A program made the translations under genes and the position numbers. 56,921 nucleotides of DNA from assembly GCA_024763505.1 (NCBI GenBank), contig JANTFI010000004.1:1-56921 (forward strand), in the 5' to 3' direction. Each line of letters opens with the position of its first letter. The first letter of the stretch is position 1. Below, piece by piece: positions 5,098 through 37,064 of the stretch. The notes under the pieces were generated by a model. It ran no database searches and had not been told where the DNA came from. It saw only the letters and a program-made list of their open reading frames with translations. The stretch comes from Gammaproteobacteria bacterium. GTDB taxonomy: Bacteria; Pseudomonadota; Gammaproteobacteria; GCA-001735895.

Positions 5098-5820
5098 ATG
5101 AGCGATTCCTTCCGGCGCATCTTTCTGCTCAGCCATATGCGCGCCTACAGCAGCCTGTTCGGCCATATACTCGGCTCGCATCCCGATATCAATGGCTACT
5201 ATGAAATGCACCTTGGGTATCGGACTACGGCAGATCTGGCGCGACAACTGGCCCAGTATCGCGAGCAGGACCTGCTCAAACCCGACAGCCAGTTTCTGTT
5301 CGACAAGATTTTACACAATCAATATCCGCTCAATCTCGAACTGGCAGAATTACAGGATGCGATCATTCTGGTTTCGTTACGTCATCCGCAAGCCAGTATT
5401 CAAAGCATCGTTACACTATTTGCTCAAAAGCCCGGCGACCATGCCTACGCCACTCCGGTCGGCGCAACCGATTATTACTGCCAGCGGTTGAATCATCTAG
5501 CGGAATTCTGCCAGCAACATGCCCGGCGGTATTATTATTTCGATGCAGGAAATCTGGTTGAACAACCACAACCAACGCTGGACAGGATCAGCCAGTGGTT
5601 ACAACTGGCCATAACGCTCAAAACAGATTATCAAACCTTTGCCCGCACCGGACAGGCACGCGCCGGAGATTCCTCGGAAGCAATTCATCGCGGCCAGATC
5701 ATTTCCTCGAAACAACCGGCTGCTGAGCGGCAACTGGACGATACAGTGCACCAACAGGCGGACGAGCAATATCAGGCTGCGCGAACAGTCATCCGGCAAC
5801 ATGCCATAGACGCAATCTGA
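5098..5820 (+). CDS. Sulfotransferase-fold (P-loop) protein
   Basis: N-terminal IFLLSHMRAYSSLFGHILGSHPDINGYYE resembles the 5'-PSB R-S-G-S/T...HP..E region; SLRHPQASIQS resembles the 3'-PB motif. Confidence 0.65.
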   Translation: MSDSFRRIFLLSHMRAYSSLFGHILGSHPDINGYYEMHLGYRTTADLARQLAQYREQDLLKPDSQFLFDKILHNQYPLNLELAELQDAIILVSLRHPQASIQSIVTLFAQKPGDHAYATPVGATDYYCQRLNHLAEFCQQHARRYYYFDAGNLVEQPQPTLDRISQWLQLAITLKTDYQTFARTGQARAGDSSEAIHRGQIISSKQPAAERQLDDTVHQQADEQYQAARTVIRQHAIDAI

Positions 5821-5830
5821 AAGACGAACT

Positions 5831-5867
5831 CTGACAGACCTATTCTGACAGACCTATTCTGATAGAC
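5831..5867. repeat. Tandem repeat, 14-bp unit CTGACAGACCTATT (about 2.6 copies)
   Basis: ctgacagacctatt-ctgacagacctatt-ctgatagac read directly, in the gap between convergent genes. Confidence 0.9.
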
Positions 5868-5891
5868 GCTCTCTTACAACCGCGCTCTGGC

Positions 5892-7712
5892 TCAATTTCT
5901 GAAAGCACCAACCACCTGGTCCCAGGTTTCACGCTGTTGCGAGTAACCCTGCAATGCGCGACATAGCGCTTGCTTGCGCTGGCGGCGATGTTCGACATCT
6001 TCAATCAGTTGCCAGGCCACCGATTGTTCACCAAAATTGAAATCGATGTTTTCAATAAAGCGGCGGAATGCACCCACTATGGCATGTTTATCCGGTAGTC
6101 GATTCCACCAGTAAGCATCATCCTCGAAATAACCGGACAGCTTGCGATTTTGTCGCTCCACCGCTTGACGTTTTTCAGTGTAAATTTGCAATAATTCCTG
6201 CTCGATCTGATCCAGTGTTGACTGGATTTCCGAGGTGGAAAAATTCTTTCCATCCTCGCTTCCGGCGGCCAGTCTTTCTGCGCTGAAAAGCATCAAGTCA
6301 CCGAAAAACTGGCGCTCGAATTCATCCGATAAATCAATACGTTGTTTTTCAAAAAATACACCGGGGCGAAAGTCATCTTCGAGTTTTTCGGATTGTGTAC
6401 GCTGATGCAACATCGGCATATTGGCTGAGGCAAACTGTGGGCCGATCTCGGCCTGAATCAAACGGCCAGCGGTCGGACCAGACATCCGCAAGCGCAAATC
6501 ACCGAAAGGAATCACATATTTCAAGCCCTCAAAATTCGCCACATAGTTGCCCGGGTAGATAGTGCGCGCCGGCTGCAATCGATCGAAAGCAACGTCAAAA
6601 CGAAAGGTTGTTTTTCGGGTTAAATGTTCCCCAAAGAAAAAATTATTTAACCGCTCCGACAAATGTCTCAAACAGTCTGTCATATCATGTCTTCCAGCAA
6701 GCGGGCAGCAATATTCGACAGCATCCCCGGGGGGTTCGAAGCCAAACATTCTGGACAAGTCATGATACGCCGCATCGCCAATCGGCTGTGCCGGCAGCGT
6801 ATGAAAACAACAATCTTCATCGGGCTGCTGCTTGCTCAATCGGTGTAGAAAATGAAGCAAATCCTCGATGAAATTCTGCGCCATTACCGAGGGTGAAACC
6901 GGTGGATCTCCAACCAGTTTTCCGGTCAACAGACGAACCGGCAGCTGGCGAAAAATCCGGTCGATATAATAAAAATAATTGATTGCCGAAACCGGGCTAC
7001 CCTGCAAGCGGTTTTGCTGAAACAATTGATCACTGTCAACCAGAAAATACAGTGTGTTATCCGGATCGCCGGTCATCTTCAGCATCTTGAGATAACTCAG
7101 GTTGCGGTTCGCTGCCTGCCCCTTGCGGTAAAAACGCTCGCGCGGCTGATCGCTCAGAATCGAAGACAGATTTTCACGCCACTCCGGTTCGATCTGTTGC
7201 ATTAACTCATATTGTTCAGCCTGACCCAGATGTGTCACCGACAAGCCTTTTTCAGTAAAGCGCCTTGCAATCTCGATATCCTGTTGAATATTTTCCGGAT
7301 CTTGACTGTCTTCTGCTACCACCACCCGGATCTTTCCGAACACACCTTGACGTTTGCCGCCGTAAGAAAAAAGGGTACAGAGTTGATAAATACTTTGCAG
7401 ACAACTTTGCAAATGCTCGGGACGGTCAGCAATCGGAATGCTGAGGATAAAATCATTGCGACGGTCTTGGCTCTGCTGCGCAATCAAGGCTTCCTGCTCC
7501 CGGAACAGGCTTTGATAAACATCGATATCGGCATCGTCCCCATCCTTTTCCCAGATCAAAGCCTCCAGAGCCGGGTAAACGGCATCATACAGCGCGATCA
7601 CATTCCGGTCACAACTCGCCTGCTGAAACTGTCGGGACCATTCTTCCACTGCTCCGATACGCCCCCGGTATTCGTCAAGGAATCGATCCAGCTGCGAGGT
7701 TTTCCAACTCAT
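5892..7712 (-). CDS. Hypothetical protein with GT-A (glycosyltransferase family 2-like) fold
   Basis: FILSIPIADRPEHL (beta1), VVVAEDS, KGQAANRN and LYFLVDSDQ (DxD) in GT-A order; start overlaps the stop of the upstream ThDP gene by 4 nt (ATGA). Confidence 0.65.
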   Translation of the reverse strand: MSWKTSQLDRFLDEYRGRIGAVEEWSRQFQQASCDRNVIALYDAVYPALEALIWEKDGDDADIDVYQSLFREQEALIAQQSQDRRNDFILSIPIADRPEHLQSCLQSIYQLCTLFSYGGKRQGVFGKIRVVVAEDSQDPENIQQDIEIARRFTEKGLSVTHLGQAEQYELMQQIEPEWRENLSSILSDQPRERFYRKGQAANRNLSYLKMLKMTGDPDNTLYFLVDSDQLFQQNRLQGSPVSAINYFYYIDRIFRQLPVRLLTGKLVGDPPVSPSVMAQNFIEDLLHFLHRLSKQQPDEDCCFHTLPAQPIGDAAYHDLSRMFGFEPPGDAVEYCCPLAGRHDMTDCLRHLSERLNNFFFGEHLTRKTTFRFDVAFDRLQPARTIYPGNYVANFEGLKYVIPFGDLRLRMSGPTAGRLIQAEIGPQFASANMPMLHQRTQSEKLEDDFRPGVFFEKQRIDLSDEFERQFFGDLMLFSAERLAAGSEDGKNFSTSEIQSTLDQIEQELLQIYTEKRQAVERQNRKLSGYFEDDAYWWNRLPDKHAIVGAFRRFIENIDFNFGEQSVAWQLIEDVEHRRQRKQALCRALQGYSQQRETWDQVVGAFRN

Positions 7713-9382
7713 GAACGGTTGGAGGAATAATTCGGGTAGGCATCCTGATCGATGACGATTTCAATCAGATTGATATCGTGATGAAAATCCAGCGTATCAA
7801 ATACCGCTTTGCATTGTTCTTCGGCATCGATTCTGACATGCGTGATGCCGAAGGATTTTGCCAGCGCGGCATAGTCCGGGTTTTGAAAATCGCAATCGAT
7901 AAAACGCTGGTCATACAATTGATGCTGGTTTTTTCGAATCAGCCCCATGCTGTCATTATTAAACAATACCAAATTGAGCGGTCGCCGGTAATTGACTGCA
8001 GTCATGATTTCCATGCAACACATCTGGAAGCCTCCATCACCGATCAGGGCGAAAATCGGTTGATCGGTTTTGTAACTCGCCCCGATCGCTGCCGGAATCG
8101 CATGCCCCAGTGAAGATGCCCCGGTGTTGGGAAAAAATCGATCCCGGGTCGACACCCGGTAAAAATTTTGAGCGAAAATGATGTTGTCATCGAACAGCAG
8201 AATGCCTTCGTCAAAGTGTTTTTCCAGCCGGGCATAAAAGGCTTTCACCACATCAAACTGATGATTGAATACCGCCGAACCATCCTGATCTGCCTGCCGC
8301 TGCAATTGCTGCCGGAAGGCAGGAATATCTTCACAGTCTTTGGCTTCCAGCGGTTCCTCATCGAGCGCAGCATTCATTTGTGTCAAAAAGGTATCAATGT
8401 CCGAATGTATCGCGACATCGGCGCGATAGACCTTCTCCAGTTGATGCGAATTCTGGTCAACCTGAATGATCTTCCGGCGGGTGAGTAAATCCTTGTTCCA
8501 CACATAACTGGTTCTTTCATTAAACCCGGCACCCAGCATGATCAGCAAATCGGCCTGTTGCTGGATATAATGCAGCGCATGCCCCGAAGAAGTCACGCCG
8601 AGACTACCGAGGGAAAGCGAAGAATGTTCGTCTATGGCCCCTTTCGCTTTCATGCTGCTGGTGACCGGAATATTAAGCCGTTCACTGAATTGCGCAAGTG
8701 ATGCCTGTGCGCCGGATTGCAGGCATCCGAAACCGGCCACGATCACTGGTTTTTCCGCCTGCCGGATCAACGCAAGGCTTTGCCCGATCGCATCATCCGC
8801 AACCCGTAGCGGAAACCCCTGACGCTGACAAACCACCTGGTCGAGTACGGTTTCATCGACCATTTCCTTTTGTACATTATACGGAATGCTCAACACCACC
8901 GGCCCGGCAATATCGGCCAGCAAGTGCTTGCTCGCCTGATTCAGTACATTACCGATATAATCGGTGCGCTCTATCATCTTGTAATAATTGGTAACGCCGG
9001 AAAACAGCGCAGGTAGATTGACACTACCGCTTTCGCCGGAGCTTTCCTGCAAACCGCCCTTGCCGAAAATATGGGTTGGCGCTTCACCGGTGATGGCAAT
9101 CACCGGTTGCTTGTCGGCGTAGGCATTGGCAATGCCTGTGACCAGATTGGTAGCACCCGGGCCGGCAGTGGCGATGCAGGCACCAATACCCCCGCTGACC
9201 CGCGCATAGCCTCCAGCCATAAATGCCGCGCCCTGCTCATGTTTGGCCAGCACAGTGCGAATGTCCGAATCATACAAATCATCATAGACCGGCAGAATAT
9301 GCGCGCCCGGCATGCCGAAAATGGTATCGATGCCCAGACACTGCAGATAACGCACAATAAGTTCACTGACCTGTATTTTCAT
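7709..9382 (-). CDS. Thiamine diphosphate-dependent enzyme (acetolactate synthase-like superfamily)
   Basis: IFGMPGAHIL, KHEQGAAFMAGGYARVSG, TAGPGATN, and ThDP motif GDGGFQM...FNNDSMG. Likely start MKIQVSEL at 9382; the ORF track start at 9469 is a TTG extension. Confidence 0.9.
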   Translation of the reverse strand: MKIQVSELIVRYLQCLGIDTIFGMPGAHILPVYDDLYDSDIRTVLAKHEQGAAFMAGGYARVSGGIGACIATAGPGATNLVTGIANAYADKQPVIAITGEAPTHIFGKGGLQESSGESGSVNLPALFSGVTNYYKMIERTDYIGNVLNQASKHLLADIAGPVVLSIPYNVQKEMVDETVLDQVVCQRQGFPLRVADDAIGQSLALIRQAEKPVIVAGFGCLQSGAQASLAQFSERLNIPVTSSMKAKGAIDEHSSLSLGSLGVTSSGHALHYIQQQADLLIMLGAGFNERTSYVWNKDLLTRRKIIQVDQNSHQLEKVYRADVAIHSDIDTFLTQMNAALDEEPLEAKDCEDIPAFRQQLQRQADQDGSAVFNHQFDVVKAFYARLEKHFDEGILLFDDNIIFAQNFYRVSTRDRFFPNTGASSLGHAIPAAIGASYKTDQPIFALIGDGGFQMCCMEIMTAVNYRRPLNLVLFNNDSMGLIRKNQHQLYDQRFIDCDFQNPDYAALAKSFGITHVRIDAEEQCKAVFDTLDFHHDINLIEIVIDQDAYPNYSSNRS

Positions 9383-9629
9383 AGCGCTGACCGGGTGCGG
9401 AATCTGAACCGCGCAAGGAAGGTGGGGCAAAGGATATATTCTGGCGCTAGCGATTGAAACATTTTTCACCCCGGGACGGATTCAAAACCATTATGCCGTC
9501 ATAAACAAATCACCCGAGGGGTTTGACTCTGCCCCGGATCAGATGCAAACTGGTGCCAGCTGTAACTACATACCCGCAAGCCAGCCCGGGCAGTACTGGT
9601 GAATTCACTCCAACCAGGAGGAGCATCAC

Positions 9630-11633
9630 ATGGAAACCGTTACACTGTTTGAATGGGCCGTCGGCGCTGTTTTTGTTGGCTTCAATGCCTACCGCCGATA
9701 CAACAACCCCACCTCCAACCGCGCTACCACCACATTCCAGAATTTCATCACCTACTTTATCTTCTATCTGCTCAGCATGTTAACGCTGTATGTTTTTTTC
9801 GGCGCGCTGTTCGACAGTTCCCCCGAAACCATCGGCGCCCTGTACGGCCTGATGACCGGGCAAGTGAATGCAACTCTGCCGAGCCAGTTGTCGAGCCTCA
9901 GCGCTCCGATGCTGTCAGCGCTGTTTCTGACCACCCTGCTGCCCTCGCTACCGTGGCTGTCCAGACTAGACACCGCCTTGCTCAACAAATTCTGGGAGCG
10001 CGGCCATATCCCGACCCATGTCAACAAGATGGCCGCTGCCATGCGCCGCGCACCGTTTAATTTTTCACCGGGGCAACTTGCCCGGCTGCAAAAAAAGGCA
10101 ACCGCACTGGATATCGATTTCGATCAACTGGCGCTGAATCAGGGCGTCAATCTTGATTACCGCTGGGCGCGCATCAATGCCCTGCTCGACAGCATTGTCG
10201 ACTGGAAAGAAGAAGACTCGGTACGGCTGACCCGATTTTTGCGAGAACATGAATCGACTTTCATTCAATTGCAGGAGCGCCTGGAGGAAATAAACCGGGA
10301 TTTCAAAGAACTCAAGGCCGCCACGGCCGAGCCGCATATTCTGCAAAAATTGCAGCATTATCTGGATAAATCCATCTACGACCTGTTCCGTGACACCACC
10401 GTTTTTGTCGCCAAGGCCAGTTGCATGGCCGAGCTGTCGGAAAGCGGCCGTAACTCGATGATTTCACAACTCGGATTCGAGGGTGGTTCGCATGGCCGGG
10501 AACGCTTGTCTTCGAGTCAGGTAGCCGGAGCCCTGCTGGCCATTCTGCTCACGTTTCTGGCCGTCTCGGTAGTACAGGAGTTGTCCAAGCCGGTTGAATT
10601 CCGTCGCTTTGGCAGCGTCGGTTTCATGACTTTTCTGATGTTTTTCACCTACGGTGCTGCCCTGCTGATTGCGCTCGAACTCAAGTGCAAAGCGGGCATG
10701 GGCTACAATGAACTCACCCGCCGAAGGTCATGGGCGGCTTATATCATCGTTGGCCTCATCACCGCTGCCAGCTGGCTGGTCGTCACCGTCAGTTACCGCT
10801 ACATCCTCAATATGCTGTCGGGCATGGATAGCCTCAGCAATCTCGAATCGGTGTACACCAGCATCGGCTGGAGTTATCCCTATGCACTGCAATCGCTGGC
10901 ACTGGCGGTGTCGATTTCATGGATTCTGGATTTCCACCAGAGCCGCGAATTAACCGGACAACTGCCCTACCGGCAACGAGTGTTCGATGTCATGTTTGCG
11001 GCATCGGCGCTGGCCATCGCGTCCTTGCTTGCCTATTACTGGATGGAAGGCATCGGCTGGTTCGAAGGGCTCGGTACCAAGGACCCGCAGTACCGCGGTC
11101 GTATGTCGCTGGGCTGGACGGTACTAAAAGGTGCCGCAGTGGGTGGCGTAATCGGCTGGCTGGTACCGACCTGGTTCAATCTCAATCGCATGAAGGCGCC
11201 TGACCAGATCGCCGGGCGTTTGATCTACATGAATCGTCAGGGACTATCGAGAGAAATCCGCAATCTTGCTCCGAACGAACTGATCAGCGCAGTCGCCGCG
11301 GTCGGCGCATCAATGGCCAGTATCGATGGAGAAGTATCGCGTTCGGAAAAGGATGTCTATCAGATTATCTGCAGCCATCTGGCCGGACTTTCCAGCTCCG
11401 ATGTTGATATCGATGCCGCCGACAAGGAATTCGAGCGTTGTATCGATTTGCTCAAAACCGATGAGCTGGATCTGCAGGAAAGACTGCACCGGCTGAAAGA
11501 TTTACCGCTGTTGTCATCCCTGATGCCATACATCGCTTCTTCCATCGCTTTTGCCGATGGCATCTACATGAAGCAGGAACGCCTGATGGTGGAGCAGATT
11601 CAGAGTCAGACGCGGTTGCCTCAACTGGCCTGA
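9630..11633 (+). CDS. Polytopic membrane protein with C-terminal TerB-like domain
   Basis: Strong RBS AGGAGG; two clusters of hydrophobic helices; C-terminal AAVGASMASIDGEVSRSEKD...IAFADGIYMKQERLMVEQI matches the TerB A.ADG...E duplicated pattern. Confidence 0.75.
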   Translation: METVTLFEWAVGAVFVGFNAYRRYNNPTSNRATTTFQNFITYFIFYLLSMLTLYVFFGALFDSSPETIGALYGLMTGQVNATLPSQLSSLSAPMLSALFLTTLLPSLPWLSRLDTALLNKFWERGHIPTHVNKMAAAMRRAPFNFSPGQLARLQKKATALDIDFDQLALNQGVNLDYRWARINALLDSIVDWKEEDSVRLTRFLREHESTFIQLQERLEEINRDFKELKAATAEPHILQKLQHYLDKSIYDLFRDTTVFVAKASCMAELSESGRNSMISQLGFEGGSHGRERLSSSQVAGALLAILLTFLAVSVVQELSKPVEFRRFGSVGFMTFLMFFTYGAALLIALELKCKAGMGYNELTRRRSWAAYIIVGLITAASWLVVTVSYRYILNMLSGMDSLSNLESVYTSIGWSYPYALQSLALAVSISWILDFHQSRELTGQLPYRQRVFDVMFAASALAIASLLAYYWMEGIGWFEGLGTKDPQYRGRMSLGWTVLKGAAVGGVIGWLVPTWFNLNRMKAPDQIAGRLIYMNRQGLSREIRNLAPNELISAVAAVGASMASIDGEVSRSEKDVYQIICSHLAGLSSSDVDIDAADKEFERCIDLLKTDELDLQERLHRLKDLPLLSSLMPYIASSIAFADGIYMKQERLMVEQIQSQTRLPQLA

Positions 11634-20060: not shown

Positions 20061-21788
20061 TCAACGGCCAGAAGATTCGATCAGCCGCTGCGTCATGTGC
20101 AGGCGTATTTCAGCCTGCTCGGTGATGCTGTGAAACAGGTGATGCGGGCCGGTGGCGGCCGCCAGCAAGTCATCCAGATCATCACGGATTTCGGCGTAGA
20201 ATTCGAGCAGTCGCGTATCGAAACGGTGCAGCGCATGCGATAGTGGATCCTTGCGCTGGCGCGCGCGAATGGTGCCAATGCCATCCTGATAGACATCACC
20301 GAGACAGATATGCACCGCGTTGAACAGCGTAGCCCAGCCATTGAACCACAGCATCAGATCGATATCGAATCGTTCGCCGGTATCCTCACCGGATAACACC
20401 TGTTGCAACAGCGCGTACTCCTTGACTGTTTCACCCTCATCGAGCAGCGAGGCGCGGCCATAGCCATCGATGGTAGAACTGGTCAACAGTACAGGCGCGT
20501 CAGGGTAGCGTTTCAGTACAAAACTGGCATCCTTCAGAATCTTGCCCGCCTGACCGGTTTGCGGATTGACCTTGAGCCGGGCAGACGGCGCGGTCGACAA
20601 AACCTGTACCTGATGGCCACGCGAACCCAACTCACTGACCAGTCGTGCAAACACACCTTTTTGCAACACGTCCATCGAAAAATTCAGCCCGGTCTGCTTG
20701 TGCAGCAAGGCCAGTTGAACCTGCCCGGCATGGCGCGGCGCGGTTTCGACGATATTAGCGATCTTGGCTACCGGTATGCGTTCCTTCAACCGGCCATGCT
20801 TGGCCACATACACTTCCTGATGGAATTCATCGAAGCTGATTTGCAGCAACACCCGCGCCGCCGGCCAATGCCCCGGGCGACCCTGAATCGCCGCCGCCAT
20901 GTTGCCGATGACTTGCTCGGTGGTGGCCGCGTCATCGGCGAAATCGCCATTGAGCAAGATCGCGAAGGTCGTGACATGGCGCATCGCACGGATGCCATCA
21001 TAAAAAGCATCGAGGTGTTTGGTCAGATCACCACCGGTGAACAGCACATTGTCCGTCAGGGCATCGACAGTCTGGTAGATTTTCTGCGGATCGGGATCGA
21101 CCGGCTTGAGCGGCCGCCAGATAAACATGCAATGGCGACAGGTTTGCGGGCAACCCATCGCCGGAATAATGCCGAGTTTGGCGAAACGCCGGTTGCGATC
21201 CGCGCCGGGGTCGGGCAATTCATCCACCAGTGCCAGGCGTTGTAAATCCGGCTCGCTGAGCATATCGCCATAGCGGTCGCGCTCGTCACGCGCCAGACCG
21301 GCGAATTCCACCTTTTGCGATTGCACAAACAGACCGAAAGATTGCCACAACGACAGCAGCCGATCACGCAGCGTACCGACACTGCCATCGCAGGCTTGCA
21401 GCAAGCGGAAAAACTGTGCCTGTTGCTGCGGGCCTGCAACCGGAAATTGGAGCCAGTGGCGGGCATAGCCTTCGATGAAGTCGGCTGGCGAATCGGCCTC
21501 GACCAGCAGCTTCATCAGAAATAGTCGATCCGGGTTTTCAAAGCTGGCGAGTACATCGGCGCGGTACTGTGCTGGCACATGGTGGCGCAGCCAGTGCCAG
21601 CCATACAGGTAGGTCATCAGAAAGCTCAAATCGGCAGCATCGGCCTGAGCAGACAGCATTTTGAACATGCCGCCGGAAGTCAGTCGATTGATTTCGGATT
21701 TAAACCGCTGGCGTAATGTCGGCAGGTAAATCTTCAGCAGTTGCTGCTGTTCAATATCTTCGACGATGGTTTGCGGGCTGGCACTCAT
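20061..21788 (-). CDS. Radical SAM superfamily protein with long N-terminal extension, function unknown
   Basis: GCPQTCRHC (CX3CX2C followed by an aromatic) near residue 213, VLFTGGD (GG motif), LQISFDEFH. Confidence 0.8.
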   Translation of the reverse strand: MSASPQTIVEDIEQQQLLKIYLPTLRQRFKSEINRLTSGGMFKMLSAQADAADLSFLMTYLYGWHWLRHHVPAQYRADVLASFENPDRLFLMKLLVEADSPADFIEGYARHWLQFPVAGPQQQAQFFRLLQACDGSVGTLRDRLLSLWQSFGLFVQSQKVEFAGLARDERDRYGDMLSEPDLQRLALVDELPDPGADRNRRFAKLGIIPAMGCPQTCRHCMFIWRPLKPVDPDPQKIYQTVDALTDNVLFTGGDLTKHLDAFYDGIRAMRHVTTFAILLNGDFADDAATTEQVIGNMAAAIQGRPGHWPAARVLLQISFDEFHQEVYVAKHGRLKERIPVAKIANIVETAPRHAGQVQLALLHKQTGLNFSMDVLQKGVFARLVSELGSRGHQVQVLSTAPSARLKVNPQTGQAGKILKDASFVLKRYPDAPVLLTSSTIDGYGRASLLDEGETVKEYALLQQVLSGEDTGERFDIDLMLWFNGWATLFNAVHICLGDVYQDGIGTIRARQRKDPLSHALHRFDTRLLEFYAEIRDDLDDLLAAATGPHHLFHSITEQAEIRLHMTQRLIESSGR

Positions 21789-21850
21789 CGGCGCATTATA
21801 AGCCGACTCGATGCCAGAGTCTCCCCACTGTTTTCAAGGAACAAACCAGG

Positions 21851-22573
21851 CTAAACGGATGACGATGAATTTTTGGCTCTGATTTGATCCCAGTCCAGAT
21901 TATTGCAGGCTTCACAGGGTTGCTTGAGTATCTTCAACCAGACCAGTAATGCATGCACCTGACAACCCATGCACAAACCCAGTACGCATTCCAGCCACAT
22001 GAAACCGATGCACACCCAGACCAGGGTAAGCGGAATCACAGGCGGTATAAAGTTTTCCGTGGTAGGCAACAGTTCGCTGCCCGCCAGCGAATTGACCCAG
22101 CCGGCAAACACTTCCGGGTTGAAAAATACCAGGCAGACCGAAATCAGGCTGGCGCCAATTGCCCAGGCAAAGCGCTTGGGCAGCAGCGGTTTCCACACCG
22201 GCGGATGAGCCGACGCCAGCAAACTACTGAGCAGGATAGTCGGCGAAAGACGCGATGCATATACGCTCATACCAATCAGCATTTCAAACAGTGCATACAA
22301 CAGAATATAGGTTTGCAGGCTGTAATCGTAGGTTCGGCGAGTCGCTTCCACGCTATAGATAATGCGGTCTTCCCAGTCGGTTTCGTAGGTATCCACCGCC
22401 GTATTGACGATCACATCCCAGTTCGGGCCATACACGGCATCGTACAGCGTCAGGCCCAGAAACAGAGGAATCGTCAGCAGCATACCGGCGCGGATTCTGA
22501 CTGCGACATCATTGAGATATACCGGCTGTTCATGTACATCGCGGAACCATAAATGACGGAAAATCTTGATCAT
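21851..22573 (-). CDS. DUF4395-family membrane protein
   Basis: VRIRAG, PKRFAWAIG and WLECVLGLCMGC are characteristic DUF4395 segments. Confidence 0.75.
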   Translation of the reverse strand: MIKIFRHLWFRDVHEQPVYLNDVAVRIRAGMLLTIPLFLGLTLYDAVYGPNWDVIVNTAVDTYETDWEDRIIYSVEATRRTYDYSLQTYILLYALFEMLIGMSVYASRLSPTILLSSLLASAHPPVWKPLLPKRFAWAIGASLISVCLVFFNPEVFAGWVNSLAGSELLPTTENFIPPVIPLTLVWVCIGFMWLECVLGLCMGCQVHALLVWLKILKQPCEACNNLDWDQIRAKNSSSSV

Positions 22574-26762: not shown

Positions 26763-26799
26763 ATTGAATCGGCAGAAGAATCTGTCATACACTCGCTCC

Positions 26800-28467
26800 A
26801 TGCCGGCCGAGTTACCCGAAAGCTATTACCTCGATAATGTTTTGATCCTGTTCAGGCATATCGAGACGGTTTATGGCGATATTCTGGACCCGACGCAAAG
26901 CCGATTCCTGCAAGACTTTGCGGGCTTGCCGGCAGCCAGCCAGCGGCTGGTTATCCGGCTGCTGAATCGCAGTGGCGAAAGGTTCCGGTGCGGAAAACTC
27001 GAATACCCGGAAATCGGCCCGATCGCCGCGGCGCTACCTGCGCTGGAGCAGGCCGGTTTTATCGAAATACCAACCCGGCCTGCGCTCGCCGAGGTCATCC
27101 CGCTGTTCACCCGTGCCGAGTTGCTCAAGCATCATCCGCAACGCAAAAAGCTGCAGTCCCTCAAGCGACCAGCCTTGAATGATCAATTGATTCACGATGA
27201 CGATGAAACTTACGTCCGGCAATTATTTGCACAGGAACAGTTCATTCGAGTGCTACAGCAGGAAACCTACCAGATCTTCCAGATGATGTTCTTCGGCAAC
27301 CGCAATCAATCTATGACCGATTTCGTATTACGCGATCTGGGTCTGCAGCAATACGAACCCTACTGCATCGATGCGAGCAGTCGTCCGTATACCAGCCAAC
27401 AAGAAGTTCAGCAGCATTGGCAGTTGTATCAAATTCAGCAACAACTCGAACACACGGAAGCCGCAGACCTCAATGGCTGGCTCGATTTGTTCGCGACCAT
27501 CCCGCAGCACTTGCCCCGGCATTCCCCGCTATTTGGCAAGAGCGAACGACTCCGACTGGTCATTGCCCGACAGATCGAACGCATCGGTGAACTGGATCTG
27601 GCGCTGAATCTGTATTCGCAATGCCGGTTGCCACCCGCTCGTGAGCGCAAGGCACGGATTTACCAGCGCCAGCGTCGGTTTTCTACCTCGCTGTCGATTT
27701 GCAGGGACATCCTCGACCAGCCACTGGAGGAATCCGAAACTCAATTTGCGATCGAATTTTCGGCGCGTCTGGCCAGGCGGCACAATCTGCCCCCTTTTCC
27801 GGAACATAAAATTTCGCCGACAAAGAAACCGCAAACCATTGAACTGACATTGCCGAAATCCGACCAGGTCGAGCAGGCAGTGGTTGAACATTACCAGCGG
27901 CAACCGGGTACTCATGCCTGTTACTATCTGGAAAACAGTCTGTTCAAAGGTATGCTTGGATTATTGCTCTGGGATGTCATTTTCGCGCCTGTACCGGGCG
28001 CTTTTTATCATCCGTTTCAATATCGCCCCAGCGACTTTTACGATTTTGATTTTATCGCCAAACGAAAGTCTCTGGTTGATCAAGTGTTTGCTCAGATTCA
28101 CGACATTGTCGACATCTGGCAAATCGTACAGGTAAGATGGCAGCAAAAGGCTGGAAGGATGAATCCGCTGGTAAACTGGAATGCCCTGACCCTCGACATC
28201 ATCGAACAAGCCTTGCAGCGCATCGACACGGCTCACTGGCTGGTGATCTTTCAGCGCATGCTGCGCGACTTGCGCAACCATTGTTCGGGCTTTCCGGATG
28301 TATTGCAGTTGCCGGCCGCAGGCGGTTATCAATTGCTGGAAGTCAAAGGTCCCGGCGATCGGCTGCAAAAAAACCAGCAGCGCTGGATGCAGTTTTTCGC
28401 CGCGCATGACATTCCGCATGGCGTGGTCAAGGTGTGCTGGCAAGCAGAAGATGGCAGCAAAACATGA
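26800..28467 (+). CDS. VRR-NUC domain nuclease (bacterial FAN1-like)
   Basis: N-terminal YYLDN, central TPR-like region, C-terminal GFPDVL...LLEVKGPGDRLQKNQQRW. Start taken at ATG 26800; the track uses TTG 26764. Confidence 0.9.
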   Translation: MPAELPESYYLDNVLILFRHIETVYGDILDPTQSRFLQDFAGLPAASQRLVIRLLNRSGERFRCGKLEYPEIGPIAAALPALEQAGFIEIPTRPALAEVIPLFTRAELLKHHPQRKKLQSLKRPALNDQLIHDDDETYVRQLFAQEQFIRVLQQETYQIFQMMFFGNRNQSMTDFVLRDLGLQQYEPYCIDASSRPYTSQQEVQQHWQLYQIQQQLEHTEAADLNGWLDLFATIPQHLPRHSPLFGKSERLRLVIARQIERIGELDLALNLYSQCRLPPARERKARIYQRQRRFSTSLSICRDILDQPLEESETQFAIEFSARLARRHNLPPFPEHKISPTKKPQTIELTLPKSDQVEQAVVEHYQRQPGTHACYYLENSLFKGMLGLLLWDVIFAPVPGAFYHPFQYRPSDFYDFDFIAKRKSLVDQVFAQIHDIVDIWQIVQVRWQQKAGRMNPLVNWNALTLDIIEQALQRIDTAHWLVIFQRMLRDLRNHCSGFPDVLQLPAAGGYQLLEVKGPGDRLQKNQQRWMQFFAAHDIPHGVVKVCWQAEDGSKT

Positions 28468-30845
28468 GCGAGTCTAGCAACAACGAGCCTGACAAAAACA
28501 AGCCGGGCCAAGAACCCGTTCGCATCGGCATTCGCGAACTGGTCGAGTTCTGTTGCCGCCGCGGCGATCTCGGCTATGACGGTGGCCCTTCTCCTTCTGC
28601 GCAGGAAGGCATACGTTGGCACCAGAAAATCCAGCGCCGCTATCGAAAGCAAGCCAAAGCCGAGGTTCGACTGCAACAGATTTTCCTGCGCGACGCTGGC
28701 AGCATCGAACTGGGCGGTCGCATCGACCTGTTGTTCGACCAGCAAAACCCGCCACGGCTGGAAGAAATCAAAACTGTCACCAGTCTGCTCAACCGTGCCC
28801 AAGAGCACAGCGAAGCCCTGCACTGGGCGCAACTCAAATGCTACGCCGCCTGTTATGTCATCGAACAGAATCTGGAGCAGGTCGTGATCAGCCTGAATTT
28901 GGTCGAATCGTCGAGCGGACAGGAATTCCGCCAGCACCAAACCCTGTCCGCACCGGCGCTACAGGCATTTCTCGAGCCACTGCTCGATCGCTACCTTGAC
29001 TGGCATCGGCAAGTGGAAAGTCGCCGCCAGCAAATGATCGCCAGTGCCTCGAAGTTGGCTTTTCCTCACCCGTTTTTTCGGCCACAACAACGAGAATTTG
29101 CGGCGCGGGTTTATCGCAATATTCAGCGCGAAGGACAGCTGTTGGTCGAAGCGCCGACCGGTAGCGGAAAAACCATCAGTACCCTGTTTCCGGCGATCAA
29201 GGGGCTGGGTGAGCAATTGACGGCACAGATCATTTTTCTGTCAGCCAAGACTTCCGGCCAGCAGCAAGCCATCAACGCCATCGAATTGATGATCGGACAA
29301 GGGCTGGAGGTTCGCTATCTGGTACTGCAGGCCAAGGCTAAATCCTGCGTCTGCAACGATCAGGCGAATGCCCTCGATGACGATGGAAACTGCCTGCGTA
29401 CAATCGGTTTTTATGATCGCCTTGATCCCGCACGCGCTGCCTTGTTGCAACGAAACCGGCTTGATCCGGAAACCATCCAACAGGTGGCCAAAACCTACCG
29501 GCTTTGCCCGTTTGAATTATCGCTGCAGATGCTGCCGTGGGTAGATATCATCATTGCCGATCTGAACTATGTGTTTGATCCTCTGGTACAGCTGAGTTAT
29601 TTTAAAACCGATGGTCGAAGCAAATGTCTGCTGATCGATGAAGTGCACAACCTGGTCGATCGCGCGCGCTCCATGTATTCGGCCAGCCTGTCTCGCCGGC
29701 AACTCAAACAGGCGATCGAATCCAGCCAGCATACAGGCATCCGAACCACACTACAGCGATTCCAGCGCACCTTCGATCGCCAGATCAGCGCCCTGCCGCA
29801 GGATGAATTTATCCAGCCTGAAAAAGGTGCCAGTATGGGTCGATCGGTATGGCATTGTATCGAAAAACTGCAGGTCGATCTTTCCGCCAACGCGACGATC
29901 AGCCCGCCAGTGCTGGAAATCATCAAGGCTTTGTTTCGCTACCACAGCATCGATCAACTGTACGGCCCGCATCATCGAACCCTCGCTACCCGGCCATTGA
30001 AAAGCCGTCAGTGGCAACTGCGATGCCTGAATGCGTTTGAGTATCTCGCCACCGCGTACCGCTTGTTCAAGCATGTTTGTGGATTCTCAGCCACATTGGC
30101 ACCTTTGATGCATTACCGGCAGGCGCTGGGCTTTGATCGGGACGCCAAAGCATTTCGTCTGGCCAGCGGATTTCCAGAGTCACATCAGGGGGTGATGGTT
30201 GGCGGATATATCGATACACGCTACCGCCAGCGCGCCGATTCGATCGACGCCATCTGCCAGAGTCTGTATCAGTGTTACCTTGCAAAACCGGGTAACTATC
30301 TGGCATTTTTTTCATCCTATCAATTTATGCAGCAAGTGTATGAGCGATTCCAGCAGGACTATGGCACTATTTCTTCCATTATCCAGCCCAGAGAGGCCAG
30401 CGATGGCGAACGGCAGCAATTTCTGGATCACTTTTTTTCGCAGCAGCAGATCATCGGCTTTGCCATCCTTGGCGGCGTTTTTGCTGAAGGTATCGACTAT
30501 CATGGAGACAGCCTGATTGGCGCGATCATTGTCGGCGTCGGGCTACCGCAACCGGACACCCTGCAAAAGCTGATTGAGCAGGATTTTAATCATCTTGGGC
30601 TAAATGGTTTCGACCATGCTTTCCGCTTTCCCGGCATGACCCGGGTTCTGCAAAGCGCCGGACGTGTCATTCGCAGCGAGACCGACCGGGGAGTCATCAT
30701 CCTGCTCGAGCAACGCTTCACTCAGCGCGCTTACCTCGATTTGTTTCCAGCACACTGGCAACCCCGGATGTGTCAGAATCCAGCTACGCTGGAGGCCGCC
30801 TTACAGCAATTCTGGGGCTGTCATTCCGGTCCAGCGAAGGCTTGA
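28464..30845 (+). CDS. DinG/XPD-family Fe-S DNA helicase with N-terminal PD-(D/E)XK nuclease domain
   Basis: GRIDLL...EEIKT...WAQLKCYA nuclease; EAPTGSGKT, four Cys (CVC..C..CPFE), IDEVHNL, FAEGIDY, QSAGRVIR; ATGA coupling to VRR-NUC at 28464-28467. Confidence 0.9.
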   Translation: MSESSNNEPDKNKPGQEPVRIGIRELVEFCCRRGDLGYDGGPSPSAQEGIRWHQKIQRRYRKQAKAEVRLQQIFLRDAGSIELGGRIDLLFDQQNPPRLEEIKTVTSLLNRAQEHSEALHWAQLKCYAACYVIEQNLEQVVISLNLVESSSGQEFRQHQTLSAPALQAFLEPLLDRYLDWHRQVESRRQQMIASASKLAFPHPFFRPQQREFAARVYRNIQREGQLLVEAPTGSGKTISTLFPAIKGLGEQLTAQIIFLSAKTSGQQQAINAIELMIGQGLEVRYLVLQAKAKSCVCNDQANALDDDGNCLRTIGFYDRLDPARAALLQRNRLDPETIQQVAKTYRLCPFELSLQMLPWVDIIIADLNYVFDPLVQLSYFKTDGRSKCLLIDEVHNLVDRARSMYSASLSRRQLKQAIESSQHTGIRTTLQRFQRTFDRQISALPQDEFIQPEKGASMGRSVWHCIEKLQVDLSANATISPPVLEIIKALFRYHSIDQLYGPHHRTLATRPLKSRQWQLRCLNAFEYLATAYRLFKHVCGFSATLAPLMHYRQALGFDRDAKAFRLASGFPESHQGVMVGGYIDTRYRQRADSIDAICQSLYQCYLAKPGNYLAFFSSYQFMQQVYERFQQDYGTISSIIQPREASDGERQQFLDHFFSQQQIIGFAILGGVFAEGIDYHGDSLIGAIIVGVGLPQPDTLQKLIEQDFNHLGLNGFDHAFRFPGMTRVLQSAGRVIRSETDRGVIILLEQRFTQRAYLDLFPAHWQPRMCQNPATLEAALQQFWGCHSGPAKA

Positions 30846-33887: not shown

Positions 33888-36800
33888 TTATTCCAGCAGG
33901 AAGCCAATCGCATCGATCGAGAATTTTCTGACCTGACTCGGAGGCAGCGCATAAAAATTTTGCCAGGCCTGCTCCCGCTGTTCGTCATAATGGCCATCAT
34001 GCCGGTTTAGCCACGCAATCTTGACGGCATGACCAATGATTACATCGAGCACGATATCTCCGCTGATCTCCAGCTGCGGGTTTTCCCTGAAAACCCTGAT
34101 CAGGGTCTGCAGCATCTCGATATTCAATTGCCGGTAAGCCGGTGAATCGATCTGGTTCAACTCGGCTTCAACCAGCATCGCGAAGGCCGGCTCGCCGGCG
34201 GTCATGTCATGCGTGATATCGTGGCTGATGCGGCTACCGAGACTGTATTTGTCGCCGATAATCAAGCCGTTGCAGCGGCTAAGGATTTGATAGATTTCAT
34301 GGTAATCCGACTCGGACAGGCGCACCAATCCACCGCTGTGCTGTCGCCATTCGGTCCAGTCTCGCCGCTGGCCTGCCTCTTCATGGGCAAACTCGCCGTC
34401 ATCCAAAAGACCGTGTTGAAGCGTCGGACTCAAGCCGGCAGCCTGCAGGTGCTCCTGCTGTTGAATGATGCCGGATTGCTCATTCAGTGTTTGCAGCAAA
34501 TGCTGCAGCAAATCGAATATTCTACTGGGCGCAAAGGTCAGTATTCGCTCGTAGGCAGCTCCGCTGTTGAGCGATTCATCACGGGCTGTGCTGGCCACCA
34601 GCAATTGTACAAAGTGGCGAACACGCAGGGTCAGCATATCCTGAAACAGGGCCGGCCGGGATTTCAGCAAATGGCCCAGGTGCAGCATCACTTCTTGCGT
34701 CAAAATACTTTCAGCCGCTGTCTTGCCGCTAAATGTACGAATGCGTTCAATGATGCGTTCACTGCTTAATGGATGGGATATCACCGCCTGTTCGCTGTAG
34801 GCACGACCGACAGAGAGGCGCTTGCGGCGGATGATAATTTCCAGCAGCGTATCTTCTATACGGCTGTCGCACAGGTTCATCAAGTCAGCCATGCGCCGGA
34901 CCAGCGACCAGTGATGATGAACGCAGGCAACATCATACAATTGCCTGCAAAGTTGCATCAAAGAGTTTTCACCCTGGCCGATATCGACCCGGGCATCTGG
35001 TCCCATCTGTTTGATCAATATTCTCAGAATCTCGGCCTGCAGTAATCGATTACCGGTTTTTGCAAACTGCTCGATCAGCGTCGATTGTTCTGATTCGTAC
35101 AACCGTTGCAGGTCGGCTGGTTGCAAGCTGTCGCTGTCGAGTCCGGCAATAGCCGCCTGCCCAACCCGGGCCGGCTGCAAGGCATCCGGAAAACGGTAAT
35201 CATGCAGATAGGTAATTCGCTCCAGACAGGCCGTCGTCAGCAACGAGTCGAGTCGTCCGGTAATTACGTCAACACCGTCACATTGACCCCGGGTCAGGTC
35301 ACTGAGCAGTTGCATCAAGGGATCTTCGAGGTCGTCATTGAGCATATCGGCACGAACCAGAAAGCTGACCAGTGGTTGGCCCGGCTGATCCCAGTTTTCA
35401 GCGATAAAACGCACCGACGAGCGAAACTGTTCCACCAGCAAATGATTATCATGGCTCAGATAAAATTCGCCCGGATTGAAATAATAGGGCAGAAAGATCA
35501 TGCGCTGGCCGGTAATTTCAAACAGACGTGAAGTGGTCAGGGTACGCATTACCAGCGCCGGGCGTCCGCTTAAACCGAGCGCCTGGTTTTTTCCGAGATA
35601 GGTATGCACCTGCGCCAATTCAGCTGCATGAAACACCTGTACGGGCGAGATTTGCGCCAATGTCTCAGTGCTGATACCACGATTGAGCAGATTTTGTCTG
35701 ACCGCTTCATTCTCTGCAAATATGGGTACCAACAGGCTGGTAGAACGATGGTGGCCTGGCCGCTGACGCCGATGCAGAGGGTCGATTTCAGCAGGATGAA
35801 GGGTACCATCCTCGATCATATCCGCGAGTATGAACAGACTTTGCGCCCAGGTCAGCGGCAGATTTTCATTGGCTTCCCTTGACTGGCTGCCGGGTTGATT
35901 TTTCTCAGCCTCAATCCGCTCGACGGGTACACGATACAACTCGGGCAGTAACTCCAGTCCCGCTTGTTCGACGAACAGGGGCTGCAGTTTTTCGCGCCAT
36001 TGTGCCGCCTCGCTATTGCGCCCGGTCATCAGACCGTCGAGCATCAGATAACAAAAAAACAAAGGCCACTCCGACTCGATATCCCTGAATTTCTGCAGTT
36101 CACTGGGCTCATAATGCAGCCGGGATTCATCTTCCAGTGCACTTTGATGGCCATCCAGCAAAAAACGTTTACAACCATAGCGCCCTTGTAGTGTTTGCAG
36201 AATTTTGTCGCGGGTTTCCTTGATCAACTCCTTATCTTCGATCGCATAAGCGGGAAAACCGATAATACTGAGAAGCGCGGCATCGGTTTCCTTGGAATTC
36301 GACTCTCTCGGTAGCAAGCCCTGCAAGGTAAAGCGGGATCGGGCGATGTCACTTGGCACGACATGAATGATACCGGTGGAGGATGGCACATTACCAAACA
36401 GGTTGAAGCCCGCCAGGGACTCCAGCGCAGCCTTGGCCATACCGACTGAACTGGCATTGATCTCAGGAATGCCGCGGTTGGTTTTATTGCCACGCTCCCA
36501 GATACCGTAATCCGGCGTGCAATAGGTTCGGCTGATATAATGCACCAGATTCTGGATGAAATTGACTTCATCGGCGCTGTAGATCAGGCTGATGCCGGAA
36601 GCGATCATTTGCACCAGTTGCAACAGGTATAGCGAAACCGCATCGAGCTGCAAGTGCCCCCACTCACTGTCTCCGACTACCGCCTGACCGGTACGGGTGC
36701 CGAACTTGGCGTGAATCGAATCTTTTGGATCCAGGCTGTACTTAAAGGCTTCCACCCGGTCAGCCTGCTGCATCATGGCCTTTAACAGGCCTCGCATCAG

Positions 36801-37064
36801 GCGAACGACCGATTTTTCCAGTTGATAACTGTGTTGATGTTGCGGAATATGACGATGATAGGCTCGTGACAGACCCCATACCGCCAGAATGCAATACACA
36901 TTATCCCTGATCCAGGCATCGGTGTAATCTCCGTGTATATTGATTGCGGTGCTGGCCGGCAACAAGCCGGTGATCGGATCCTGCTTTTCGATGATCAGGC
37001 GCTGGATACGGAAGTAATGATGTTCTAGCTGGTCGAGCGTTTGGTCAGGCACAGAGTCATGCAA
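33888..37064 (-). CDS. GH15-like protein homologous to phosphorylase kinase alpha/beta subunits
   Basis: TGLLPAST, AWIRDNVY, WGHLQLDA, PDYGIWERGNK, DAALLSIIGFPAYA, YGCKRFLLDG, EWPLFF, PLTWAQSL, plus about 600 aa of C-terminal PhK-like region. Confidence 0.88.
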   Translation of the reverse strand: MHDSVPDQTLDQLEHHYFRIQRLIIEKQDPITGLLPASTAINIHGDYTDAWIRDNVYCILAVWGLSRAYHRHIPQHQHSYQLEKSVVRLMRGLLKAMMQQADRVEAFKYSLDPKDSIHAKFGTRTGQAVVGDSEWGHLQLDAVSLYLLQLVQMIASGISLIYSADEVNFIQNLVHYISRTYCTPDYGIWERGNKTNRGIPEINASSVGMAKAALESLAGFNLFGNVPSSTGIIHVVPSDIARSRFTLQGLLPRESNSKETDAALLSIIGFPAYAIEDKELIKETRDKILQTLQGRYGCKRFLLDGHQSALEDESRLHYEPSELQKFRDIESEWPLFFCYLMLDGLMTGRNSEAAQWREKLQPLFVEQAGLELLPELYRVPVERIEAEKNQPGSQSREANENLPLTWAQSLFILADMIEDGTLHPAEIDPLHRRQRPGHHRSTSLLVPIFAENEAVRQNLLNRGISTETLAQISPVQVFHAAELAQVHTYLGKNQALGLSGRPALVMRTLTTSRLFEITGQRMIFLPYYFNPGEFYLSHDNHLLVEQFRSSVRFIAENWDQPGQPLVSFLVRADMLNDDLEDPLMQLLSDLTRGQCDGVDVITGRLDSLLTTACLERITYLHDYRFPDALQPARVGQAAIAGLDSDSLQPADLQRLYESEQSTLIEQFAKTGNRLLQAEILRILIKQMGPDARVDIGQGENSLMQLCRQLYDVACVHHHWSLVRRMADLMNLCDSRIEDTLLEIIIRRKRLSVGRAYSEQAVISHPLSSERIIERIRTFSGKTAAESILTQEVMLHLGHLLKSRPALFQDMLTLRVRHFVQLLVASTARDESLNSGAAYERILTFAPSRIFDLLQHLLQTLNEQSGIIQQQEHLQAAGLSPTLQHGLLDDGEFAHEEAGQRRDWTEWRQHSGGLVRLSESDYHEIYQILSRCNGLIIGDKYSLGSRISHDITHDMTAGEPAFAMLVEAELNQIDSPAYRQLNIEMLQTLIRVFRENPQLEISGDIVLDVIIGHAVKIAWLNRHDGHYDEQREQAWQNFYALPPSQVRKFSIDAIGFLLE

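Follow-up and report, generated by a model that had tools for sequence, protein, structure and literature searches.

What is made by an enzyme resembling acetohydroxyacid synthase (AHAS) when its gene is joined to that of a large protein of the glycosyltransferase (GT) type? The question is raised by the window, that is, the whole stretch of 56,921 nucleotides analysed here (contig JANTFI010000004.1 of the gammaproteobacterial assembly GCA_024763505.1), on the minus strand of which open reading frame (ORF) calling gave two ORFs, 7709..9469 and 5892..7712. A first-pass annotation had described them as a two-gene unit composed of a thiamine diphosphate (ThDP) enzyme and a 606-aa GT-like protein, with an ATGA overlap. 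The overlap lies at 7709-7712, as claimed, but the unit is not limited to two genes, as a convergent sulfotransferase-fold gene (5098..5820), missed earlier, is the third partner. Our best reading, to which we assign a probability of roughly one half, is that the three genes form a conserved chromosomal biosynthetic unit making a sulfated glycoside-type small molecule, and not branched-chain amino acids. The superfamilies of all three proteins are well known; the families themselves, and the module, are a new, uncharacterised variant. The parts of the locus are as follows:

5098..5820, plus strand: predicted 3'-phosphoadenosine 5'-phosphosulfate (PAPS)-sulfotransferase-fold protein, 240 aa, convergent with the GT-like gene (PF13469, AlphaFold2 (AF2) model, Foldseek)
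5821..5891, no strand: convergent intergenic region of 71 bp between the sulfotransferase-like and GT-like genes, holding most of a 14-bp tandem repeat
5892..7712, minus strand: predicted soluble GT2-like (GT-A fold) protein, 606 aa (AF2 model, Foldseek, conserved motifs)
7709..7712, minus strand: ATGA stop/start overlap of the ThDP gene and the GT-like gene (direct sequence reading)
7709..9382, minus strand: predicted ThDP-dependent enzyme, 557 aa, of the AHAS/decarboxylase superfamily, in its own orthogroup (PF02776, PF00205, PF02775)

The most probable start of the ThDP protein is the ATG at 9382 (MKIQVSELIV) rather than the upstream GTG, because the orthologues, 555-558 aa long, can be aligned from MKIQVSELIV onwards. 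The ThDP and GT genes of the relatives are usually separated by 4-16 bp, so that the exact ATGA overlap is a peculiarity of this window, while tight adjacency is the conserved feature.

How constant is the association of these genes in other genomes? A scan of one genome per GTDB species returned at least 316 genomes with a relative of the 606-aa protein. The best 80 of them, from which the taxonomy was taken, are nearly without exception sulfur- or iron-oxidising Beta- and Gammaproteobacteria (Thiobacillus, Sulfuricella, Hydrogenophilales, Gallionellaceae, Chromatiales, Thiohalobacter, Sedimenticolaceae and unclassified members of both classes); one of these records is labelled Rhizobium, but its locus has a Thiobacillus-like layout and may be mis-binned. 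The GT gene had no copy in the plasmid collection. The trio formed by the ThDP gene, the GT gene and a homologue of the 240-aa protein was present in all of the first six contexts, window included. In the five foreign ones (a Joint Genome Institute (JGI) metagenome, Sulfuricella denitrificans, Candidatus Thiodiazotropha and two metagenome-assembled genomes), the ThDP gene was directly upstream of the GT gene (5/5) and the 240-aa homologue lay within 3 kb on the opposite strand (5/5). Our tally covers 84 loci of this close clade, with denominators restricted to the loci having enough flank (73 upstream, 61 downstream). The GT gene is preceded by the ThDP gene in 51 of 73 close loci and followed, within 3.5 kb and always convergently, by a sulfotransferase-like gene in 56 of 61. 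In the close clade, the GT gene thus has a steadier partner in the gene overlooked by the first-pass annotation than in the ThDP gene. The locus of Thiothrix fructosivorans (L088:11750-14831) has an AAA_15/AAA_21 ATPase gene and a 170-aa gene inserted between the ThDP and GT genes; its GT gene (499 aa) lacks the first ~86 codons, and the module may be disrupted there.

A second, distant clade was reached by using GT members 30-39% identical to the window protein as queries for metagenome contigs. With tblastn, the ThDP gene was found in 71 of 82 distant loci, at 51-65% identity to the window ThDP enzyme, and the other 11 have almost no upstream flank. The ThDP-GT order is thus kept at 34-43% GT identity, while the third gene changes. 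Indeed, a PF13469-type gene was never present in the 82 distant loci by tblastn. In 40 of them, a protein of 176 aa carrying NTGRCGSTTF and VHLxRDKQxTIxSF is encoded instead, mostly directly downstream of the GT gene and on the same strand (e.g. L126:6145-6681), and is followed in 27 loci by a convergent Methyltransf_24 gene. Others have, on the same strand and mostly directly downstream, a gene for a CapK/PaaK-like adenylate-forming enzyme of ~436 aa, which was recovered in 18 loci by ORF clustering and in 24 by tblastn. Altogether, the ThDP-GT adjacency is kept in more than 120 loci from two clades, and the pair proposed from the window alone is linked elsewhere even at 34% GT identity. ThDP-GT is an old core, the third enzyme of which swaps with the clade (sulfotransferase, P-loop protein with methyltransferase, or CapK-like adenylating enzyme).

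The motifs of the 176-aa family look like the PAPS loops of sulfotransferases. However, hhalign gave no significant match between this P-loop protein and the 240-aa family (probability 0.14), Pfam Sulfotransfer_3 was matched by only two of 24 members (E ~0.009), and the matches of the family in the PDB were spurious (gp41); for these reasons we go no further than to call it possibly sulfotransferase-like. Upstream of the ThDP-GT pair, some distant loci carry aprB, aprA, a CxxCxxCC protein gene and a metallophosphoesterase gene, with a CBS protein gene on the other strand (e.g. L166:993-7931), each of these genes recurring in about 7-18 distant loci. About 7-14 distant loci have aprB-aprA at a few kb from the pair, on its upstream side, which indicates that these hosts, too, are sulfur oxidisers of the adenosine 5'-phosphosulfate (APS) pathway.

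Does anything else travel with the module? Recurrent neighbours were sought by all-against-all clustering of the flanking ORFs of ~170 loci; antisense artefacts that our simple ORF caller gave in high-GC Thiobacillus loci, among them one neighbour cluster, were disregarded. In the close clade this clustering revealed no fourth recurrent gene, apart from a HAD hydrolase in eight gammaproteobacterial loci and LexA in eight Thiobacillus loci. The compatible-solute glycoside pathways (GpgS/GpgP, MpgS/MpgP) pair a GT-A enzyme with a dedicated HAD phosphatase, whereas here the HAD hydrolase is divergently upstream in only 8 of ~88 close loci. No linked gene for transport, polymerisation or nucleoside diphosphate (NDP)-sugar supply recurred among the neighbours of the ~170 loci. 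The surroundings of the module are variable housekeeping contexts, not glycan clusters, and in the window the Pfam scan likewise found housekeeping or unrelated neighbours (methyl-accepting chemotaxis protein, ApbC/Mrp, MetG, a TerB-domain protein, a two-component system and permeases). A conserved pair, a clade-variable third enzyme, housekeeping surroundings and the lack of recurrent transport, polymerisation and NDP-sugar genes are together typical of a short small-molecule pathway.

Two further links were considered and rejected. Synteny with MetG/ApbC was seen in only three loci, and sucrose genes and TauE are beside the pair only in the Sulfuricella loci (L002, L008 and L079). In the one of these whose genes were listed (L002), the module lies beside genes for a TauE-family exporter, sucrose-phosphate synthase/phosphatase and amylosucrase-like proteins, upstream of katG.

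The ThDP enzyme has the same three domains (PF02776, PF00205 and PF02775 by Pfam) as the AHAS catalytic subunit (IlvB/IlvI; TIGR00118; E. coli AHAS I, PDB 6LPI), with which it shares the catalytic Glu in HEQGA, the Gln of the (F/L)QE motif and the GDG..NN Mg-ThDP motif. The segment LFDDNIIFAQNF, quoted earlier, is indeed present in it. Nevertheless, it falls under the curated cut-off in all 25 NCBIfam rows listed (models for AHAS, acetolactate synthase (ALS), Gcl, POX and Xsc), the best match being TIGR00118 with 354.4 bits for a cut-off of 538.35. Comparison with the E. coli AHAS I and yeast AHAS shows where it departs from these enzymes. The AHAS GTDAFQE is replaced by FGKGGLQESSG plus an insertion, DVGQHQMW by DDNIIFAQN (its absence had been rightly noted before), and the Trp/Gln specificity position by an Asn (GLIRKNQ). 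The AHAS RFDDR becomes GFNER, in which the Arg corresponds in the alignment to the final Arg of the AHAS motif and is thus kept. In AHAS, the RFDDR Arg binds the acceptor carboxylate. Unlike AHAS genes, the window ThDP gene has no adjacent gene for a regulatory small subunit and is coupled to the GT-like gene instead. As announced by the first-pass annotation, no ACT-type small subunit (ilvN/ilvH) or ilvC gene was found among the neighbours scanned, by Pfam or by clustering in the ~170 loci; alsD was not found near the ThDP gene either.

This protein is under strong constraint. Its orthologues are 65-84% identical, and among 101 sequences from both clades, 179 of the 557 positions are at least 98% conserved, including the segments HEQGA, FGKGGLQESSG, GFNERTS, DDNIxFAQN, GDGGF..NN and GLIRKNQ; IGDGGFQM...FNN and KHEQGA reach 98-100%. 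Conservation is higher in the ThDP orthogroup than in the GT family. Among solved structures, the closest relative is BbmA (8X3X, 278 bits, compared to 227 bits for E. coli AHAS I). BbmA (PDB 8X3X/8XOD) has the FGKG(A/G)LQES motif and the overall length of the window enzyme, but shows ..GDW.. in the HMMER alignment where the window family has an invariant ..NER.. (Arg). Our literature search found no paper on the function of BbmA, and we therefore transferred no function from it. The ThDP enzyme forms its own, tightly conserved orthogroup in the AHAS superfamily, without being a standard AHAS equivalog. In our reading, it probably acts on 2-oxo acids as a carboligase or decarboxylase and has one defined function other than that of AHAS. 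The earlier exclusion of branched-chain amino-acid synthesis agrees with the scores below the AHAS equivalog cut-offs and with the lack of a small subunit gene nearby.

The 606-aa protein of the window has no match in Pfam or NCBIfam, and an exact look-up returned no record. It has, however, about 800 homologues at 50% identity or more, all annotated as hypothetical proteins, which form 276 clusters at 50% identity and have a uniform architecture of ~600 aa. All the motifs on which the first-pass annotation relied are present (SIPIADR at residues 90-96, VVVAEDS at 130-136, KGQAANRN at 197-204, DSD at 226-228, CCFH at 301-304 and YCCPL at 334-338). The GT-type ones are not due to chance, because P93, D96, D135, S136, K197, G198, N204, D226 and D228 are invariant or nearly so in 63 close and 46 diverse homologues. 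The consensus of the 46 diverse members, which go down to 23% identity, is VIPVADRP ... VxIADDS ... HKGASxxRN ... FIDSDQEF ... VVGDPPVSP, and their invariant residues are D135, N204, D226, D228, G268, D284, D318, H363, R366, R383, Q468 and D472.

The AF2 model of this protein, built from 63 homologues, has a predicted local distance difference test (pLDDT) score of 86 and a predicted template modelling (pTM) score of 0.87. It predicts N-terminal helices (6-78), an alpha/beta core (87-300), mixed segments past residue 300 with a lower-confidence Cys/His-rich stretch (300-345), and C-terminal helices (462-605). The best matches found by Foldseek in the PDB are mostly GT-A enzymes: the hyaluronan synthase of a Chlorella virus (E 6.5e-4), PcManGT, GnT-II, LH3, AvpGT and chitin synthases. 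PF00535 is matched weakly by 12 of the 46 diverse members (best E 9.3e-4), the gathering score not being reached; a GT family profile run against PDB sequences matched nothing but keratin coiled coils, which are spurious. The closest structural parallels are thus GT2 enzymes of the GT-A fold (PF00535; hyaluronan synthase 7SP8/9YQ5, PcManGT 6YV7). Moreover, the motif order, ..IP(V/I)ADRP, (A)(D/E)DS, KG(Q/A)(A/S)xxRN and DSD (DxD), follows the general order of GT2, as judged without a computed alignment, and VGDPP sits where GT2 has the base motif G(D/E)DR. Unlike these GT2 enzymes, the 606-aa protein is devoid of transmembrane segments, is below the PF00535 gathering score, and has ~85 aa of N-terminal helices, a Cys/His-rich insert and ~130 aa of C-terminal helices. 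On the basis of the invariant motifs, the mostly GT-A Foldseek matches and the weak PF00535 signal in 12/46 members, we conclude that its predicted fold and putative nucleotide/metal site are those of a GT2-like enzyme that the Pfam threshold leaves outside PF00535, in line with the GT-A nature proposed earlier. Within residues ~296-347, C301, H304, H317, C336 and H342 are conserved and C347 is invariant in the close homologues; this set could be a structural metal (Zn) site.

The third partner, the 240-aa protein, matches PF13469 (Sulfotransfer_3) with 43.1 bits for a cut-off of 27, and its AF2 model, built from 53 homologues, has a pLDDT of 88. All 47 Foldseek matches of this model at E<=1e-3 are structures of the sulfotransferase family (TPST1/2, the CurM sulfotransferase domain, heparan-sulfate 3-OSTs, NDST and cytosolic SULTs). 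The profile search of PDB sequences with this family gave nothing. Its orthologues, from Thiothrix nivea, Achromatium, Thiobacillus and Thiodiazotropha among others, are 45-57% identical. Compared by eye, the invariant N-terminal LLSHMRAYSSL (strand-loop-helix) resembles the PRSGTTL 5'-phosphosulfate-binding (5'-PSB) loop of sulfotransferases, and a ..P....S segment their 3'-phosphate-binding (3'-PB) motif; R15 and S19 (in MRAYSSL) and S103 are invariant in the family. The protein differs from known PAPS sulfotransferases by its short length (240 aa) and by a 3'-PB Arg that is not invariant. Since this Arg varies, we grade PAPS use as likely, short of proven.

How could three such proteins act together? 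In our best reading, they would constitute a short pathway in the cytoplasm that ends in a tailored glycoside, which in this clade would carry sulfate. The ThDP enzyme would decarboxylate pyruvate or another 2-oxo acid and ligate the activated aldehyde to a carbonyl acceptor, giving an alpha-hydroxy-keto unit (an acyloin or an acetohydroxy-acid-like compound). The GT2-like enzyme would join this unit, or a derivative of it, to the sugar of an NDP-sugar, using a DxD-bound metal. The sulfotransferase would come last, O-sulfating the glycoside with PAPS, and other lineages would keep the ThDP-GT core and exchange this tailoring step (P-loop protein with methyltransferase, or CapK-like adenylating enzyme). 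An acyloin glycoside, as suggested by the first-pass annotation, is a possible product. PAPS is made from APS, which is a central intermediate in the bacteria that oxidise sulfite via AprBA/Sat. The restriction of the module to APS-pathway sulfur oxidisers, together with the occasional adjacency of aprBA (itself confirmed only in some distant-clade loci), suggests that the module is linked to the APS/PAPS pool.

The window sequence was matched only in DNA runs of hydrothermal-vent metagenomes. For the locus of Sulfuricella sp. T08, sediment and groundwater metatranscriptome contigs of ~90% identity cover the ThDP and GT genes at low depth; one contig of 7.3 kb spans both genes and another of 662 nt crosses their junction. 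These contigs are compatible with ThDP-GT co-transcription. In metatranscriptome contigs, the katG gene by the Sulfuricella module is much more abundant than the module itself.

Several observations weigh against the sulfated-glycoside pathway. First, the use of the ThDP product as the GT acceptor is something that we infer purely from gene adjacency. The ThDP gene is missing from 22 close loci, mostly of Thiobacillus/Hydrogenophilales according to their record titles; these loci show that the GT and the sulfotransferase can be the only two of the trio in a locus, which weakens this step in particular. The two proteins may work there without a ThDP enzyme, or the latter may be encoded elsewhere. 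Second, the sulfotransferase gene is on the opposite strand and hence is not co-transcribed with the pair, and the evidence for co-transcription of the pair itself is weak because the metatranscriptome contigs may include DNA. Third, Foldseek matched the GT model only weakly (best E 6.5e-4, global TM score ~0.3) and the window protein itself lacks a Pfam match, while in the sulfotransferase-like family R96, the 3'-PB Arg, is replaced in some orthologues. Finally, our literature search found no characterised member for any of the three families or for the module, and nothing of relevance on this gene combination in sulfur oxidisers.

The first-pass annotation favoured another route, of the YerE type, in which the ThDP enzyme would add a C2 unit from pyruvate to an NDP-4-keto-sugar and the GT would transfer the branched sugar to an envelope glycan or another macromolecule, sulfation coming afterwards. 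ThDP chemistry of this type toward branched sugars is established (PMC9306805), and the presence of an AHAS-like ThDP enzyme next to a GT gene fits it. By type, the YerE enzymes are likewise AHAS-like ThDP enzymes tied to sugar chemistry. In addition, the most distant GT homologue (28% identity), which is without a ThDP gene and is followed by a PaaK/CapK-like enzyme, has a UDP-galactopyranose mutase gene nearby, an independent but anecdotal support for sugar-nucleotide chemistry. However, the context does not sustain this route. The window module, unlike YerE systems, has no linked genes for the supply of an NDP-keto-sugar, and genes for NDP-sugar dehydratases, reductases or nucleotidyltransferases are not recurrent among the neighbours of the ~170 loci. 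Furthermore, the module stands alone in its housekeeping surroundings, outside glycan clusters, the GT is predicted to be soluble, and membrane, flippase and polymerase genes are not linked to it. We consequently regard the YerE-type route as unlikely.

To the same degree we doubt that the GT-like and sulfotransferase-like proteins modify a macromolecule, whether by protein glycosylation with sulfation of tyrosines or sugars or by acting on a polysaccharide, the ThDP enzyme being only loosely connected. The top Foldseek match of the 240-aa model is a tyrosylprotein sulfotransferase (TPST), with more TPST entries among the best, and the GT model also matches, with low probability, the GT domains of large clostridial toxins and NleB. 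The persistence of the GT and sulfotransferase genes in the 22 close loci without a ThDP gene would also be expected. On the other hand, the neighbour clustering revealed no conserved small ORF or candidate substrate gene with the module, the ThDP-GT adjacency with its short gaps (4-16 bp) is kept across deep divergence, and clade-variable tailoring enzymes are typical of small-molecule pathways.

Still less probable, in our view, is that the ThDP enzyme is an extra acetolactate synthase isozyme, catabolic or anabolic, with an adjacency to the 606-aa gene that has no functional meaning. Its best NCBIfam matches are AHAS models and it keeps three AHAS residues (catalytic Glu, Gln and RFDDR-type Arg), but among the rows listed it is below every AHAS cut-off (354 vs 538 bits), and the family-specific invariants FGKGGLQESSG, DDNIxFAQN and GLIRKNQ stand in for the AHAS motifs. 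Moreover, neither a small subunit gene, ilvC nor alsD is nearby, and the adjacency is kept in more than 120 loci from two clades. The weakest explanation denies the 606-aa protein any transferase activity: with a degenerate GT-A fold, it would serve the ThDP enzyme as a regulator or scaffold. The large N- and C-terminal helical domains, the tight gene coupling and the lack of a Pfam match speak for it, but we give it very little credit because the nucleotide- and metal-binding motifs (D135, N204, D226xD228 and GDPP) are invariant across 23-49% identity, contrary to what a degenerate fold would lead one to expect, and because 22 close loci keep the protein with no ThDP gene beside it.

Beyond the general proposal of a sulfated glycoside-type small molecule, a stronger version can be formulated, which we put forward tentatively and consider rather doubtful as a whole. 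The module would make a novel sulfated glycoside specific to APS-pathway sulfur oxidisers, tying the dissimilatory APS/PAPS pool to a dedicated organic metabolite; the ThDP enzyme would be the source of a novel kind of aglycone, and the 606-aa protein the founder of a new soluble GT2-like family. Such a compound could be, for example, a sulfur-linked solute, a carrier or a signal. Among the genomes listed, the 606-aa family is concentrated in environmentally important oxidisers (Thiobacillus, Sulfuricella, Thiothrix, Thiodiazotropha/Sedimenticolaceae and Chromatiales), for the physiology of which a dedicated sulfated glycoside would be a new class of metabolite, as well as a useful genomic marker. 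Two classes of enzymes used in biocatalysis would gain new chemistry from the ThDP orthogroup and the GT-like family. Should the pathway prove to be of an ordinary tailoring kind, these results would be of use mainly for a better annotation of several hundred entries now called 'acetolactate synthase' or 'hypothetical protein'.

A few other features of the window can be mentioned. TRF detected a 14-bp tandem repeat at 5808..5868 (consensus AGACGTATTCTGAC, 4.4 copies, 82% matches); with these limits, the array begins within the 3' end of the sulfotransferase-like ORF and continues into the 71-bp gap. No terminator-like site was found in 5821..5891, the region-wide count being equal to the shuffle mean, and the promoter/terminator scan of the region did no better than shuffles. 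Divergently from the ThDP gene, positions 9630-11633 (plus strand) encode a 667-aa protein with a C-terminal TerB domain as its sole Pfam match; it is kept (86% identity) only in the closest relative, L001, and is probably outside the module. Further away, we noticed a 1058-aa protein (33888-37064, minus strand) in which a GH15 glucoamylase-like domain is joined to a phosphorylase-kinase alpha/beta C-terminal domain (KPBB_C), and the gene of which adjoins a glucokinase gene (37256-38239, plus strand). At 26764-30845 (plus strand), the gene for a FAN1-like protein of 567 aa (FAN1 HTH and VRR-NUC nuclease) overlaps that of a DinG/XPD-type helicase of 803 aa, possibly forming a DNA-repair gene pair. 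Finally, the region 20061-22573 (minus strand) encodes a 575-aa protein with a weak radical-SAM match (27 bits for a cut-off of 29.5), beside a DUF4395 protein.

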